Positions 12,982-59,174 of a DNA stretch of 64,000 nucleotides are shown piece by piece. The stretch covers positions 47,058,001 through 47,122,000 of the forward strand of contig OX597822.1 of assembly GCA_951406725.2 (NCBI GenBank), written 5' to 3'. The position numbers and the translations under genes are program-made. This stretch comes from Octopus vulgaris (taxonomy: Eukaryota). The notes beneath the pieces are model-generated. The model was not told the DNA's origin and searched no databases. It worked only from the letters and a program-made list of their open reading frames with translations. How positions within the stretch are numbered: position 1 is the first letter of the stretch; every line of letters begins with the position of its first letter.

Positions 12982-13717
12982 GTAACTTAGCGGTTCACCA
13001 ATCGAGCTCGATAAAATAACTTACCGTTTCGCCAAAGGTGATCGATAAAATAACTTAGAGGTTCGCTAAAGGAAATTGATAAAATAACTTGGCGGTTCGC
13101 CAAAGTAGATCGATAAAAAACTTAGCGGTTCGCCAAAAGAGAAAGATAAAATAACTTAGTGGTTCGCCAATCGAGATCGTTCGCCAAAGAAAATCGAAAA
13201 ATAACTTAGCAGTTCATTAATCGAGATCGATAAATTAACTTAGCGGTTCGCCAAGGAAGTTCGACGAAGTAATTTAGCGGTTCATCAATCGAGATCGATA
13301 AAATAACTAAGCGTTTCGCCAAAAGAGATCGATAAAATAACTTAGCGGTTCGCGAAAGGAGATCGATACAGTAATTAGTGCTTTGCCAATCGATATCGAT
13401 AAAATAACTTAGCGGTTCACCACTTGTGATCGATAAAATAACATAGCGTTTCGCCAAAGGAGTTCGAGAATGTAACCGAGCGGTTCGACAATCGAGATCG
13501 ATAAAATAACTTAGCGGTTCGCCAAAGGAGATCGATAAAATACCTTAACGGTTCGTCAATCGAGATCGATAAAATAACTTAGCGGTTCGCCAAAGGTGAT
13601 CCATAAAATAACTTAGAGGTTTGCCAAAGGATATCGATAAAATAACATAGCGTTTCGCGAAAGGATATCGATAAAATAACTTAGCCGTTCGCCAAAGGAT
13701 ATCGATAAAATAACTTA
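12982..13717 (+). repeat. ~34-bp minisatellite (~21-22 units) derived from family A SINE body
   Basis: Unit AATAACTTAGCGGTTCGCCAAAGGAGATCGATAA vs SINE A GTAACTTAGCGGTTCGGCAAAAGAGACCGATAGAAT. Confidence 0.9.
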
Positions 13718-26456: not shown

Positions 26457-26932
26457 CAAATACAAAAGATAAACAATACAACGAAGTAGAAATGTTACAG
26501 CAAGAAAGTAGAAAGGCTACTGGATAATTTAGAAAATTTGAACCTGTTTCATTTAGCATTATGAGACAAGTGCAAAAGGATAAACAAAACGACTCCAAAT
26601 CGTGTTGAATGATTTAGAAAATAAATCTTAAATAAAGTGGGATAAATTAAAACAGCTTCAAACGGTGTTTGCATTACTCACAAAAACAAAAAGAGTAGTG
26701 TATATATATCACCGTGGTCACCGTGACCGACCAGGCTATCAGATGTTCTTACACATCGCTGGTCACAATGCGCTTCGCATCGATTAAGAGCATTAGATAC
26801 CTTGGAAGAAAGCAGCGAATGTAAACAAAAACAAGGACGAAAAAAAACGGACAATGTTACACAATATATATATATATATATATATAAACTTACTTGGAGA
26901 ATAAGAAACGACGCGAGGCGCTCAGTCATATT

Positions 26933-27075: not shown

Positions 27076-27717
27076 TACAGGACACCACAAATAAACGTAG
27101 AACACAACGAGAAACGAAACTATAAAAACAAACAAGGAAACGGACTTTTTTTAACAACGAAAAACAGAGTACAAGACAAACAATACAAGGAATATTCCCC
27201 TTCATCAGCTGCCCCTGGTTCGACTCAATGCGTGTTTCAAAGGTAAGGGCAGAACACGATCCGGCCGAAGCAGTCCTTCCTGCAAAATGAATTAAATAAA
27301 ATTCTTTTGCAGAGGAGCAAAAAAGGAAAGAAAAAAAGAACAGGACGTAAAAGCAATACAAATAAAAATACAGTACACATAAAGAATAAAAACGGGACAA
27401 GGAAACCAACATTGAGGGCTGTTTTTAAGCCTAGACGGTGGAAAAATTCGTTTGAAACACGCATTGAGTCGAACCAGGGGGCAGCTGATGAAGGGGAATG
27501 TTCATTGTATTGTTTGTCTTGTACTCTGTTTTTTCGTTGTTAAAAAAGTCCGTTTCTTTGTTTGTTCTTATGGTTTCGTTTCTCGTTGTGTTCTACGTTT
27601 ATTTGTGGTGTCCAGTACTCATATATATATATATATATGCATGTATATATACATAGAGATGTAGGTTGTACATATACATATGTATGTATGCATATGTTTT
27701 ATTTGTTAAATTGTTAT
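26933..27717. mobile_element. Palindromic non-coding (PLE-like) element, arms 26933-27241 / 27451-27717
   Basis: ~270-310-bp inverted arms embedded in (TA)n; homologous to the direct repeats at 27893-29137. Confidence 0.75.
27195..27258 (-). ncRNA. Putative hammerhead ribozyme with non-canonical strand order
   Basis: CGTGT-T-CTGCCCTT-a-CCTTT-GAA-ACACG-14nt-AGGGGCAG-CTGATGA-AGGGG; stem III 5 bp, stem I 8 bp. Confidence 0.7.
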
Positions 27718-28038
27718 TATATATATATATGTGTGTGGCTGTGTAGTAAGTAGCTTGCTAACCAGCCACATGGTTCCGGGTTCAGTCCCACTGCGTGGCA
27801 TCTTGGGCAAGTGTCTTCTGCTATAGCCCCGGGCCGACCAATGCCTTGTGAGTGGATTTGATAGACGGAAACTGAAAGAAGCCTGTCGCATATATTTTTC
27901 CACTGTTTATATATATATTTTTTACTGTTTATATGTTTGTACTGTCGTTACCGTCTTTCTTTTTTTACCCCTCTGCGAAAAGATCTCAGAATTTTAATTG
28001 ATTTGCTTTTCGCAGGAAGGAAGTTTTCTTCGAAGTAT

Positions 28039-28101
28039 ACGTCTCGCTTTTATCCTTCGAAACGTTTAGTAGATGAAACCTTAGCGACTGAAGAAGGGGA
28101 T
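28039..28101 (+). ncRNA. Putative hammerhead ribozyme with non-canonical strand order (copy 2a)
   Basis: ACGT-C-TCGCT-ttt-ATCCTTC-GAA-ACGT-17nt-AGCGA-CTGAAGA-AGGGGAT; GUC cleavage triplet. Confidence 0.72.
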
Positions 28102-28876
28102 TTTTCGTTGTGCTTATTGTCCTGTATCTCTTTTTTTGCTTGTCTTGTTCCTTGGTTTGTGTCTATGTTTTTCGTCTCTCTATGTGTTCGACGTCTTTTT
28201 GGTGTCCTGTACACATATATGCGTGTATATGTACATGTAGAGGTAGGTACGTACATATATGTTTATATATATGCATATGTTCTATTTTATTAACATATTA
28301 TACGACTAAACGCACGCACCCTATTAAGTAAGATTGTTCTGTTTATCAAGTTAGCCTTGATATTAACTCTCACGCGACTCTGCATCTTTCTTTCTTTCTC
28401 TCCCATTCCCTTTTTCGTCTTTTTTCCCTCACTTAACTTATCTCTTCCTCTCTCTCTCCCCCTCACCGTTCTTCATGGTCTCCTCGCACCATTCCCCTTC
28501 TTCTCTCTCTTCCTCTTGCTCCTCCTCCCCCATTCCCGTCGTCCATCTGCGACGATACTTCCGTCGTAACTGCTATCCTGTCTTTTCTCGCCCGCCTTCT
28601 AAGGCTACTGGTCGACATTCTTTCTCTCTCGTCGTCCACTATAATCCAGCGTTTGCAATACTTTTTTCGTCTGGCGTTAACAGCCCTTCTTATCTTGTTC
28701 TCCTTGTCCTGTCTCTCACTGTTATATATTTATTTTTCCACTGTTTATATATATATTTTTTACTGTTTATATGTTTGTACTGTCGTTACCGTCTTTCTTT
28801 TTTTACCCCTCTGCGAAAAGATCTCAGAATTTTAATTGATTTGCTTTTCGCAGGAAGGAAGTTTTCTTCGAAGTAT

Positions 28877-28939
28877 ACGTCTCGCTTTTATCCTTCGAAA
28901 CGTTTAGTAGATGAAACCTTAGCGACTGAAGAAGGGGAT
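28877..28939 (+). ncRNA. Putative hammerhead ribozyme with non-canonical strand order (copy 2b)
   Basis: Identical to 28039-28101. Confidence 0.72.
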
Positions 28940-29130
28940 TTTTCGTTGTGCTTATTGTCCTGTATCTCTTTTTTTTGCTTGTCTTGTTCCTTGGTTTGTG
29001 TCTATGTTTTTCGTCTCTCTATGTGTTCGACGTCTTTTTGGTGTCCTGTACACATATATGCGTGTATATGTACATGTAGAGGTAGGTACGTACATATATG
29101 TTTATATATATGCATATGTTCTATTTTATT

Positions 29131-39820: not shown

Positions 39821-42470
39821 CCTCTTTGATCTTTTTCGGCACCCTCTTTGATCTTTTTCGGAACCCTCTTTGATCTTCGTCGGCACTCCTCTTTGATCTT
39901 TTTCGGCACCCTCTTTGATCTTTTTCGGCACCCTCTTTGATCTTTGTCGGCACCCTCTTTGATCTTTTCGGCACCCTCTTTGATCTTTTTCGGAACCCTC
40001 TTTGATCTTCGTCGGCACTCCTCTTTGATCTTTTTCGGCACACTCTTTGATCTCTTTCGGCACCCTCTTTGATCTTTGTCGGCACCCTCTTTGATCTTTG
40101 TCGGCACTCCTCTTTGATCTCTTTCGGTACCCTCTTTGATCTTTGTACAACCTCATCTTTGATCTCTTTCGGCACCCTCTTTGATCTTTGTCGGCACCCT
40201 CTTTGATCTTTTTCGGCATACTCTTTGATCTTTGTCGGCACCCTCTTTGATCTTTGTCGGCACTCATCTTTGATCTTTTTCGGCATCCTCTTTGATCTTG
40301 GTCGACACCCTCTTTGATCTTTGTCGGCACCCTCTTTGATCTTTTTCGGCACCCTCTTTGATCTTTTTCGGCACCCGCTTTGATCTTTATCGGCACTCCT
40401 CTTTGATCTCTTTCTGTACCCTCTTTGATCTTTGTAGGCACTACTCTTTGATCTTTTTCGGCATCCTATTTGATCTTTGTCGGCACCCTCTTTGATCTAT
40501 TTCGGCACCCTCTTTGATCTTTGTCGGCAACCTCTTTGATCTTTGTCGGCACCCTCTTTGATCTTTGTCGGCACTCCTCTTTGATCTATTTCGGTACCCT
40601 CTTTGATCTTTTTCGGCACCCTCTTTGATCTTTGTCGGCACTCCTCTTTGATCTCTTTCGGCACCCTCTTTGATCTTTGTCGGCACTACTTTTTGATCTT
40701 TTGGGCATCCTCTTTGATCTTTTTCGGCACCCTCTTTGATCTTTGTCGGCACTCCTCTTTGATCTCTTTCGGCACCCTCTTTGATCTTTGTCGGCACCCT
40801 CTATGATATTTGCCGACACTCCTCTTTAATCTCTTTCGGCACCCTCTTTGATCTTTGTCGACACTCCTCTTTGATCTCTTTCGGCACCCTCTTTGATCTT
40901 TGTCGGCACCCTCTTTGATCTTTGTCGGCACCCTCTTTGATCTTTGTCGGCACCCTCTTTGATCTTTGTCGGCACCCTCTTTGATCTTTGTCGGCACTCC
41001 TCTATTATCTTTTTCGGCACCCTCTTTGATCTTTTCGGCACCCTCTTTGATCTTTTTCGGCACCCTCTTTGATCTTTGTCGGCACCCTCTTTGATCTTTG
41101 TCGGCACTCCTCTTTGATCTTTGTCGGCACCCTCTTTGATCCTTTCGGCAGCCTCTTTGATCTTTGTCGGCACTCCTCTTTGATCTATTTCGGCACCCTC
41201 TTTGATCTTTTTCGGCACTACTTTTAAATCTTTTCGGCATCCTCTTTGAATTTTTTCGGCACCCTCTTTGATGTTTTTCGGCACCCTCTTTGATCTTTGT
41301 CGGCACTCCTCTTTGATCTCTTTCGGCACCCTCTTTGATCTTTGTCGGCACCCTCTATGATCTTTGTCGGCACTCCTCTTTAATCTCTTTCGGCACCCTC
41401 TTTGATCTTTGTCGACACTCCTCTTTGATCTTTTTCGGCACCCTCTTTGATCTTTGTCGGCACCCTCTTTGATATTTGTCGACACCCTCTTTGATCTTTT
41501 TCGGCACTCCTCTTTGATCTCTTTCGGCACCCTCTTTGATCTTTGTCGGCACCCTCTTTGATCTTTTTCGGCACCCTCTTTGATCTTTGTCGGCACTCCT
41601 CTTTGATCTTTTTCGGCACCCCTTTGATCTTTGTCGGCACTACTCTTTGATCTTTGTCGACACTCCTCTTTTATCTTTTTCGGCCCCTCTTTCATCTTTT
41701 TCGGCACCCTCTTTGATCTTTGTCGGAAATCCTCTTTGATCTTTTTTGGCACCCTCTTTGGTCTTTTTCGGCACCATCTTTGATCTTTGTCGGCACTCCT
41801 CTTTGATCTTTTTCGGCACCCTCTTTGATCTTTGTCGGCATTCCTCTTTGATCTTTTTCGGCACCCTCTTTGATCTTTTTCGGCACCCTCTTTGATCTTT
41901 GTAGACACTCCTCTTTGATCTTTGTCGGCACTCCTCTTTGATCTTTTTCGGCACCCTCTTTGATCTTTTTCGGCACCCTCTTTGATCTTTTTCGGCACCC
42001 TCTTTAATGTTTCTCGGCACTCCTCTTTGATCTTTTTCGGCACCTTCTTTGATCTTTGTCGGCACCCTCTTTGATCTTTTTCGGCACCCTCTTTGATCTT
42101 TTTCGGCACCCTCTTTGATCTTTGTCGACACTCCTCTTTGATCTTTGCCGGCACTCCTCTTTGATCTTTTTCGGCACGCTCTTTGATCTTTGTCGGCACC
42201 CTCTTTGATCTTTTTCGGCACCCTCTTTGATCTTTGTCGGCACCCTCTTTCATCTATGTCGGCACTCCTCTTTGATCTTTTTCGGCACCATCTTTGATCT
42301 TTGTCGAACCTCCTTCTTTGATCTCTTTCGGCACCCTCTTTGATCTTTTTCGGCACCCCCTTTGATCTTTTTCGGCACCCTCTTTGATCTTTGTCGGCAC
42401 CCTCTTTGATCTTTTTCGGCACTCTCTTTGATCTTTGTCGGCACCATCTTTGATCTTTGTGGGCACTCCT
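39821..42470. repeat. 2.65-kb minisatellite of 22/23-bp units (~120 copies)
   Basis: Unit ACCCTCTTTGATCTTT(T/G)TCGGC with ACTCCTC.. variant; source of the KIKEGAEKDQRG pseudo-ORFs. Confidence 0.95.
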
Positions 42471-42684
42471 TTGAAATACAGGTACAACAGAAACAGGAAG
42501 TAAGAGTGAGAGAAAGTTGTGGTGAAAGAGTACAGCAGGGATCACCACCATCCCCTGTTGGAGCATCGTGGAGCTTTAGGTGTTTTCGCTCAAAAAACAC
42601 TCACAACGCCCGGTCTAGGAATCGAAACCGCGATCCTACGACCGCGAGTCCGCTGCCCTAACCATTGGGCCATTGCGCCTCCAC
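42468..42684 (-). mobile_element. Family C SINE 5' part, fused to the minisatellite
   Basis: Homologous to 6890-7092; junction at a shared CTTTGA. Confidence 0.9.
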
Positions 42685-43810: not shown

Positions 43811-44100
43811 TGTATATATATATTTATTGTTTTTACGTATTTTTGTATTTTTATTCGTGTACATCGTCCGTTTTCCGCCCTTGTGTTGCATACATTCGAG
43901 GCTTTCTTCCAAGGGATCTAATGCGCTTGGCTTAGATTTCCCTTGGGGGCTGCCCAGATCGGAGCAATCTCAAGATTAATCAGCCGAAATTGCGAAGATA
44001 ATCCTGTTCTTGACTGATGATTGAGGGCTTCGAATGTCCCGTCCTGTGTTTCTCGTGTCGTCTTCTAGGTGTTTCACGTTCTTGTCCCAGTTTGTATATA
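43810..44100 (+). mobile_element. (TA)n-embedded non-coding repeat carrying a hammerhead-like core
   Basis: Homologous copies at 57556-57810 (-) and fragment 26785-26865 (-). Confidence 0.7.
43964..44029 (+). ncRNA. Putative hammerhead ribozyme with non-canonical strand order (copy 4a)
   Basis: GCAAT-C-TCAAGA-ttaatc-AGCC-GAA-ATTGC-14nt-TCTTGA-CTGATGA-ttgag-GGCT; perfect stems III and I, AUC triplet. Confidence 0.72.
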
Positions 44101-44259
44101 TTTTTTTAACTTTTACATATATATATATTCCCTTCTTTCCTGAGCGTCAATAATACTTTAATTGTTCCACGTCCTGCGTTGCTGTGTTTTTTCCCTTTTT
44201 TTCTCTTTTTTTCTGTGTTTTCTTGTTTGGATTAACTTTATATACATATATATATATAC

Positions 44260-44729: not shown

Positions 44730-45062
44730 CAATGAGTTGGCAGAGTCGTTACAATATCAGAATAACTATTGGTCATTCGTTTCGGTTTCTTCGTTCTGAG
44801 TTCAACTCTCACCAAAGTGATATTGATTTCTCACCTTTTTCGAGTTGATAACCGCTAGAGCCTCAAATCACATTCTACTATCTTCAAAAACAAAAGGAAA
44901 AAAAATGGAGAATGTAAGCTTGGATGCTACAAACACGACGAGATGGTCACTGATGGAACACCTTTGATCTCAAATTTGTTCAACCATGTTCACTCGGTGG
45001 GTGGAACATAAACAATAACAAGAGCAACAAGTACAGCATCCAGTTTTATGTAAATTCATATT

Positions 45063-45507
45063 TATTTCCTTATTGCCCGCAGGGGGCTAAACATAGAGGG
45101 GACAAACAAGGACAAAGGGATTAAGTCGATTACATCGACCCCAGTGCGTAACTGGTACTTATTTAATCGACCCTGAAAGGATGAAATGCAGAGTCAACCT
45201 CGACGGAATTTGAACTCATGACGTAAAGAGAGACGAAATACCGCTAAGCATTTCGCCCGGCATGCTAACGTTTCTTATTTCTTTGCTGCCCACAAGGGGC
45301 TAAACATATAGGTGACAAACAAGGACAAACAAACGGATTAAGTCGATTACATCGACCCCAGTGCGCAACAGGTACTTAATTTATCGACCCCGAAAGGATG
45401 AAAGGCAAAGTCGACCTCGGCGGAATTTGAACTCAGAACGTAACAGCAGACGAAATACGGCTATGCATTTCGCCCGGCGTGCTAACGTTTCTGCCAGATC
45501 GCCGCTT
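45063..45507 (-). mobile_element. Tandem/dimeric family B SINE
   Basis: Two consecutive B units. Confidence 0.88.
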
Positions 45508-57515: not shown

Positions 57516-57557
<42 letters not shown>

Positions 57558-57622
57558 AAATGGGACAAGAACGCAAAACATCCAGACAAACGATACAAAG
57601 AAAACTAGGACGGGTCATTCGA

Positions 57623-57688
57623 AGCCCTCTATCCTCATTCAAGCACCAGATTATCCTCGCAATTTCGGCTGATTATTCTTGAGGTTGC
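57623..57688 (-). ncRNA. Decayed copy of the 43964-44029 hammerhead-like motif
   Basis: GCAAC-C-TCAAGA..AGCC-GAA-ATTGC..GCTTGA-ATGAGGA-tagag-GGCT; two core substitutions. Confidence 0.55.
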
Positions 57689-57804
57689 TCCAATCTGGTC
57701 AGCCCCAAGGAAAAACTAAGCTAAGAGCATTAGATTCCTTGGAAGTAAGCAGCGAATGCATACAAAAACAAGGATGGAAAAAACAAAGTTACACAAATAT
57801 AAAT

Positions 57805-57885
<81 letters not shown>

Positions 57886-58670: not shown

Positions 58671-58925
58671 TCAATATATATTCCAAGAAAGTTAGAGGTT
58701 GTGAATCCAACCAACTAAGGGATAATATATATCCAATATACTGCTGGTAGAATACCCAATTATTAATACATAAGTGTTTTTTTATTGCATTGTAATTAAA
58801 TTTCCGAGTGTACTAAATGGGTGAAGGTAAAGATATATTATATATATATATATATGTGTGTGTGTCACCAACTGTGCAAACAACATGAAATACGTAAAAG
58901 CAGGACAAGTAAACACGGAGAAGGG

Positions 58926-58986
58926 ACCCTTCATCAGTTGTCGACTGTCTACCTGCTCCACATTTCGAGCATTCAACGACAATGTG
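58926..58986 (-). ncRNA. Degenerate hammerhead-like motif with non-canonical strand order (copy 3)
   Basis: CACAT-T-GTCG..GCTC-GAA-ATGTG-15nt-CGACAA-CTGATGA-A-GGGT; flanks resemble the 27-29 kb elements. Confidence 0.55.
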
Positions 58987-59174
58987 AGTCTTCAAAGACA
59001 GTTGCTTTCATAAATTCTAAAATAAAATTCAGGATTTATGGATGGTCAAAGTTGGGAACAAAAACACGACAGTGGAAACATACAAGGAAACCGAATAAAA
59101 ACAAACATGGAGGGTCGTTAAACCAGAACGAGAGGAAAATAGTGAACGCTGGATATATATATATATATATATTC

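Follow-up and report, generated by a model that had tools for sequence, protein, structure and literature searches.

A candidate hammerhead ribozyme with its core opened between A9 and G10.1 in a high-copy Penelope-like element of Octopus vulgaris

The locus and its carrier element

A hammerhead-like motif lies on the plus strand at positions 43964-44029 of the window, by which we mean the whole 64,000-nt stretch of Octopus vulgaris DNA analyzed. It sits within a 5'-truncated copy of a repeat family, family A, in (TA)n (Table 1). This copy matches positions 437-726 of the unit of a tandem locus (L061) at 93%. The tandem locus holds four full units and one partial unit of ~722 nt with five motifs, and such tandem non-coding units with a ribozyme motif each are a retrozyme-like trait. 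The unit appeared non-coding by reading, as distinct from an ORF scan, and the predicted cut lies ~145 nt from the 3' end of the element. Thirty close copies (L001-L030) have a common 3' end before (TA)n and varying 5' ends. A 17-mer from the motif gave 4,841 exact matches, versus 1 for the reversed control; at first look the stretch had given 4,836 candidate matches.

An inverted copy with a tail was seen at L017/L030/L033, tails at L045 and L054, and partial tandems at other loci. Among the Naiad-clade traits, family A has 5' truncation, partial tandems, an inverted 5' copy, a tail, and a (TA)n target; Craig et al. 2021 (PMC8557442), in the sections available, describe 5' truncation, partial tandems, inverted copies, tails, and (TA)n targets for Naiads. 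Naiads have an ORF with an N-terminal GIY-YIG and a C-terminal reverse transcriptase. Among ~160 family A loci with 0.3- to 1.5-kb flanks, none combined an ORF with the 3' end of family A, and the link of this family to Naiads therefore runs through architecture (and target) only. The 3' consensus 25-mer of the octopus Naiad (Craig et al. 2021) had 187 exact matches. At one locus of family D (L172), the apparent end of a reverse transcriptase (RT) frame lies upstream of the Naiad 3' motif in the same orientation. A second family D locus (L194) carries a GIY-YIG remnant with an E value of 0.0015, which is below the Pfam cut-off, and at 1980-2596 a Naiad 5' part (GIY-YIG region) broken by unrelated sequence. 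When an intact autonomous Naiad was sought, a single 5' motif match was found, interrupted after the endonuclease. The orientation of the RT frame, together with the GIY-YIG remnant, makes the plus strand most likely the sense RNA. By analogy with the traits of the clade, the family A element may be moved by Naiad retrotransposons.

The same architecture recurs in the window in families B and C (Table 1). Family B (27890-29130 and L102-L131) is a tandem element of 838 nt. Its copies, spread over many contigs, are 99-100% identical, from which it follows that it was recently mobile; it is our best candidate for an intact ribozyme. Family C has an inverted, 5'-truncated partner with CUGA at 27485 on the plus strand. 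The earlier note, made from the letters of the DNA, held that the flanks of the motif at 43964-44029 differ from the family at 27-29 kb and that it is a largely independent instance, and no BLAST match of family A to those families appeared among the matches listed.

Several other repeats were observed. A decayed family A-like copy with a mutated CUGA is found at 57549-57813 (minus strand), a motif without one base at the cut site at 58900-59000 (minus strand), and an upstream fragment of a relative at 26786-26889 (minus strand). A 22-nt minisatellite of ~119 copies occupies 39821-42474, a 34-nt tandem array 12983-13717, and a 217-nt dimeric repeat 45062-45492. The minus strand of locus L091 carries a pair of hammerhead-like motifs in type I order, with CUGA near 1953 and 2212 and a distance of 259 nt between them; they may represent an ordinary retrozyme.

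Table 1. Coordinates (in the window) of the family A copy, the elements of its hammerhead-like motif, and related copies
Feature	Position	Strand	Remarks
Same architecture, family C	27190..27320	-	Stem I identical to published octopus Naiad 3' end
Same architecture, family B	27968..28099	+	Second copy 838 nt downstream, CUGA 28926
Family A copy, 5'-truncated, in (TA)n	43824..44117	+	Last ~290 nt of ~722-nt non-coding Penelope-like element
Outer helix P0, 5' strand	43893..43906	+	Pairs with 44023-44036; MFE and centroid; pair probability 0.71-1.0
Hairpin P4	43909..43946	+	Ends 1 nt before G10.1; folding and alignment
Stem II 10.1-10.5 strand, GGCTG	43948..43952	+	Upstream of cut site; G10.1 = 43948
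Helix U2, 5' strand	43954..43960	+	Pairs with 44000-44006
GA, non-bulged strand of predicted kink-turn	43962..43963	+	Between U2 and stem III; partner 43994-43998
Block S	43964..43975	+	Stem III 3' strand, C17, stem I 3' strand
Block G	43981..43993	+	Stem II 11.x strand CAGCC, GAAA, stem III 5' strand
Predicted kink-turn bulged strand (GAA, GA) and U2 3' strand	43994..44006	+	
Half of block C	44008..44020	+	Stem I 5' strand and CUGAUGA; no stem II next
P0, 3' strand	44023..44036	+	Holds GGCT and most of the insert proposed in the earlier note; folding

The motif and the position of stem II

In the window sequence, stem III is formed by GCAAT (43964-43968) and ATTGC (43989-43993) and stem I by TCAAGA (43970-43975) and TCTTGA (44008-44013). 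They surround an AUC site with C17 at 43969, and the predicted cut lies at 43969/43970. The core letters are GAAA (43986-43989) and CTGATGA (44014-44020), with A9 at 44020. The hammerhead features found are thus a CUGANGA, GAAA, and NUH core and covarying stems I and III around the cut site. The core, both stems, the AUC site, and the reverse (S-G-C) order of the blocks all agree with the reading of the earlier note. Its description of this copy as the cleanest was overstated, since substitutions at 44000 and 44005 weaken the helix adjoining stem I relative to the family. The block order and the full, non-palindromic stem III confirm that the minimal dimeric type I hammerhead does not apply here, and the minimal-dimer reading was ruled out on these two grounds.

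We counted matches to a descriptor covering the six block orders, with a stem I of at least 5 bp and a stem III of at least 4 bp, in 462 kb (the window and 40 genome stretches) and in 10 shuffles. The S-G-C order gave 5 matches versus 0.2 per shuffle, and 4 of the 5 were inside the window; the other orders with matches were C-G-S (3 versus 0 per shuffle) and G-S-C (1 versus 0.2 per shuffle). Over three sequence families, the S-G-C matches keep a near-constant spacing, 15-17 nt between G and S and 28-30 nt between C and G. Rfam gave no match at the gathering score in the 64-kb window, and around the motif at E values of up to 10 only (TA)n artefacts and no hammerhead. Rfam models are unable to represent this strand order.

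We assembled 167 distinct copies in seven families, A to G, of which 166 had a locatable core. The exact CUGANGA is present in 152 of the 167 copies, GAAA in 159, and C11.1 in 158, the last two counts concerning letters that belonged to the anchor by which copies were picked. For base pairing we aligned 40 copies, 10 each from the four related families A, E, F, and G, whose cells are not independent events.

The earlier note placed stem II at GGCT/AGCC, after a TTGAG insert. AGCC (43982-43985) is indeed complementary to GGCT (44026-44029), and TTGAG separates A9 from GGCT, but the pairing is unsupported next to P0, in the alignment, and in families B to F, and this placement of stem II is probably wrong. 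GGCT falls within the 14-bp outer helix 43893-43906/44023-44036, for which folding gave -18.9 kcal/mol against -4.2 kcal/mol. In a pseudoknot-free model, the pair probability of GGCT with AGCC was 0.000, and that of GGCTG (43948-43952) with CAGCC (43981-43985) was ~0.53. Across the 40 aligned copies, pairing of the GGCT/AGCC helix after A9 amounts to 74%, and 17 copies lack an intact closing G10.1-C11.1 pair. For the upstream stem II, pairing reaches 97%, three positions are compensated, and nearly all copies have the closing G10.1-C11.1 pair with the upstream strand (35 G-C, 3 G-U, and 2 unpaired). After A9, 62 of the 166 copies, all in two of the seven families, have a stem II with 4 or more Watson-Crick pairs (48 of 54 A copies and 14 of 15 G copies), while an upstream partner of at least 4 pairs was found in 137 of the 166 copies and all seven families, 35-43 nt from G12 at a distance constant per family; the search covered 18 positions upstream versus 7 downstream. 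In the divergent relatives, the GGCT after A9 is gone, and a partner upstream of block S is retained for the strand preceding GAAA.

A conventional hammerhead of type SGC, in which 5 nt are inserted after A9, AGCC/GGCT forms stem II, and the upstream pairing is an inhibitory alternative, would account for the helices possible in families A and G, and its S-G-C order, short linker between stems I and II, and extra helix fit the types of Eckert et al. 2023 (PMC10085705) as far as the accessible text goes. We regard it as improbable. A downstream stem II of at least 4 Watson-Crick pairs is absent from all 97 copies of families B to F, the GGCT strand is locked in P0, and U2 follows the upstream strand, as the helix of types SGC and CSG follows the 10.x strand. 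In the sections available, Eckert et al. report no insertions of more than 1-2 nt at this place (PMC10085705). Type SGC has an uninterrupted block C as a defining feature, and here it is interrupted: in families A and G, 5 nt separate A9 from a stem II that would have to compete with P0. The motif is therefore a variant and not a member of type SGC. A better reading of the 5-nt insert in this copy, and of the extra A that the earlier note saw in other copies, is that an outer helix begins there as it departs from the core past A9. A rejoining of A9 with G10.1 by back-splicing was rejected, none of the seven families having GT after A9.

On the models of pairing and folding, the break in the RNA chain appears to lie between A9 and G10.1, with two outer helices closing it. 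Folding without pseudoknots recovered P0, P4, and the upstream stem II; stems I and III had probabilities of <0.01, as expected for crossing helices. In the 40 copies, stem III is 99.5% paired with three compensated positions, stem I 97.5% with two, and U2 90.7% with two, although the window copy itself has only 4 of the 7 U2 pairs. P0 is 92.5% and 88.4% paired, with few two-sided changes (0 and 2 positions); the helix is long in A and has ~8 bp in E, and in B, C, D, and F it is short or varies. P4 is 82% and 89% paired in alignment A1, with a register blurred by indels. The full eight-helix model is 91.8% paired versus 26-54% for slid controls, and its pair-type counts showed no excess over shuffles.

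A kink-turn consists of a 3-nt bulge followed by tandem G-A/A-G pairs between two helices. Both strands of this consensus are present in 103 of 147 copies in six families (50/55 A, 13/20 E, 14/15 F, 21/30 C, 5/12 D, and 0/15 G), with family B not scored.

The upstream stem II, stems I and III, and U2 are supported by covariation, and the S-G-C order occurs above shuffles. Chance complementarity in an amplified repeat is therefore already largely refuted by the covariation, and we consider it scarcely credible, even though copies of one family are not independent and Rfam has no hammerhead match. The enrichment over shuffles, compensatory changes in four helices, and the equal geometry in sequence-distinct families and in other phyla (see below) all speak against it.

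Copy 5' ends and the predicted cut

We scored the 5' boundaries of the first 100 listed copies on C1, all of which were anchored on the motif itself. Eighteen boundaries fell at +1 to +7 of the predicted cut, or 17 after one internal deletion was dropped; 5 scored exactly +1, with a sixth by eye. Upstream of the cut, there were 2 boundaries at -1 to -6 and 24 in total at -1 to -96, with some deletions kept in. The per-base start rate is ~7-fold higher after the cut (binomial p = 4e-8). A pile of boundaries at -97 to -196 reflects subfamily divergence from the references and was left unused. In a partly overlapping list anchored on (TA)n and scored by eye, 17 of 21 loci start at +1 to +9, versus 4 in the preceding 22 nt. 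In family D, the signal by eye has the same direction but is weak: 3 of 32 copies start at +1 to +7, and the 70 nt upstream hold about 6-7 starts. Some of the starts at +3 to +9 may be due to TA microhomology. In the explanation that we prefer, the excess of starts would be an indirect footprint of cleavage.

A conserved fold without cleavage of the monomer could produce the same excess by stalling of reverse transcription or by microhomology. Such a fold would need a strand-swapped dimer or an element protein, or would have a binding or priming role. Metazoan Penelope hammerheads cleave poorly in vitro and act as dimers (PMC4209133), and 8 of 9 retrozyme dimers were uncleaved (bioRxiv 10.64898/2026.07.22.740005), according to the available parts of these reports; here, too, tandems exist, and the low pair probabilities of stems I and III in the pseudoknot-free model fit such a reading. 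We nevertheless think it unlikely. The catalytic letters and the NUH triplet are retained across families whose stems turned over, stem III is a full 4-5 bp and non-palindromic in family A, and the step in starts coincides with the scissile bond, whereas a structural stall would be expected at the P4 base, ~23 nt upstream.

We therefore favor, as the probable explanation, that the motif belongs to the 3' part of a high-copy, non-coding, Penelope-like element whose sense RNA forms a hammerhead opened between A9 and G10.1, with the predicted cut after C43969. From 5' to 3', the RNA would run P0, P4, the 10.x strand of stem II, U2, block S, the 11.x strand of stem II with GAAA and stem III, the U2 partner, stem I with CUGAUGA, and the P0 partner. 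The A9/G10.1 site binds metal in the standard hammerhead fold, and no tested hammerhead that lacks the A9-G10.1 link was found in the literature covered. P0 and P4 could stack into a four-way junction that holds A9 beside G10.1 and replaces the backbone link, and the kink-turn would bend stem III into U2. Cleavage after C17 would leave a 5'-OH as a defined 5' end of the RNA, where a reverse transcriptase that had started from a nicked (TA)n target would often run off. Cuts in tandem transcripts would release unit-length RNA, which possibly circularizes, and uncut, multimeric, or circularized RNA would give rise to longer copies, partial tandems, and tails. Five of the 16 upstream partial copies listed reach past the cut; a linear cut monomer therefore cannot be the sole template. 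Assembled contigs of four runs presumed to be RNA cover the stretch and, as contigs, carry no information on RNA ends, strand, or circles.

Naiad 3' ends and known hammerheads

Of the 54 Naiad consensus sequences of Craig et al. 2021 (supplement S5), we inspected 49 by eye over their final 330-450 nt. The split form was found in 10 of the 49: Bfor, Chem-3, Amil, Aacu, Anas, Movir-2, the entry before Ppla taken as Dst-4, Obim, Ovul, and Esco. G10.1-C11.1 is present in all ten, and none has a stem II following A9; the stem II of Esco contains a mismatch. The ten represent ~7 independent lineages, with a ctenophore, cnidarians, an ostracod, and cephalopods as hosts. By eye, Bfor and Amil have P0-like helices of 8-10 bp. 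An intact type CSG, with a long helix between stems I and II, is present in six nematode Naiads (Naiad-1/2/3_Nbra, Hcon, Hpol, and Asuum). The spider Naiad_Ptep has the S-G-C order and a local hairpin before GAAA, a possible stem II, and is a further wiring variant. No hammerhead was found in the 330-450 nt read of the other 32 of the 49 Naiad ends (about two thirds). Naiad-1_Movir carries what we take to be a twister-like signature. Oyster, clam, and acorn-worm Naiads have a common structured 3' UTR motif that may be another ribozyme.

In terms of strand order, opening type CSG between A9 and G10.1 would yield the octopus order exactly. As read from the sequence, the octopus order is type CSG/SGC circularly permuted between A9 and G10.1, which places it outside the six permutations of Eckert et al. 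2023. In the text available to us, Craig et al. 2021 (PMC8557442) describe Naiads without canonical hammerheads, with unexplained 'HHR_core' and 'HHR_half_core' flags, and call the role of Penelope ribozymes unclear. We hold it about evenly balanced whether the core-opened, seventh permutation, in which a four-way junction would stand in for the A9-G10.1 link, is the missing ribozyme of many Naiads, from ctenophores to octopus, being active in vivo, defining where the template RNA begins, and supplying a circular intermediate, with nematode Naiads retaining the intact type CSG from which it can be derived.

If true, hammerhead architecture extends past the six block orders thought possible, to a catalytic strand that is itself broken open and kept in place by a helical junction, and non-circular hammerheads are no longer confined to environmental sequence but occur in thousands of copies in animal genomes. 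It would be a candidate answer to the apparent lack of hammerheads in Naiads, and the pile-up of 5' ends would give a genomic handle on the function of Penelope ribozymes. Standard descriptors and Rfam miss this form, and hammerhead counts in invertebrates may therefore be much too low. In the literature covered, with most subscription journals outside it, no permuted hammerhead in Naiads and no core opened at A9/G10.1 is described.

A precedent for slack at this site is the CChMVd (+) hammerhead, which is said to have an extra nucleotide between A9 and G10.1 (reportedly by De la Pena and Flores in 2001). This case would show that the 9/10.1 link tolerates insertion; it would differ from the octopus motif in being a type III hammerhead with one bulged nucleotide, where the octopus motif has two helices and the ends of the molecule. 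Penelope hammerheads, according to the part of the report available, often carry a nucleotide between 9 and 10.1 (PMC4209133), and no helix insertion at 9/10.1 is described in the accessible part of Perreault 2011 (PMC3088659).

As far as the accessible sections go, the minimal type I hammerheads of Penelope elements and non-LTR retrozymes (PMC4209133; bioRxiv 10.64898/2026.07.22.740005) are like the octopus motif in having the ribozyme in a terminal repeat or tandem derivative, a conserved G10.1-C11.1, and slack between 9 and 10.1. They differ in their C-G-S order, weak palindromic stem III, and action as dimers, whereas the octopus motif has a full stem III and the reversed order. Naiad elements (PMC8557442, available sections) are alike in element traits, and the fold is readable in their 3' UTRs; family A differs in being non-coding and ~722 nt long.

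The closest likeness is with types SGC and CSG of Eckert et al. 2023 (PMC10085705), again from the text available. Those RNAs were absent from known organisms' genomes, with the exception of one bacterial GCS candidate, and type CSG came from two metagenomic sequences. They share with the octopus motif the non-circular, pseudoknotted order, a short linker between stems I and II (5 nt here and typically 3 in their type SGC), a helix between the strand that precedes stem I and the one that follows 10.x, and identical core letters. In types SGC and CSG, stem II follows CUGANGA immediately, and the assumption was that block C cannot be broken, whereas here it is opened at A9/G10.1. The octopus motif further differs in its two extra helices and frequent kink-turn, and while the types of Eckert et al. 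come from metatranscriptomes and metagenomes, it is present at thousands of copies in an animal genome.
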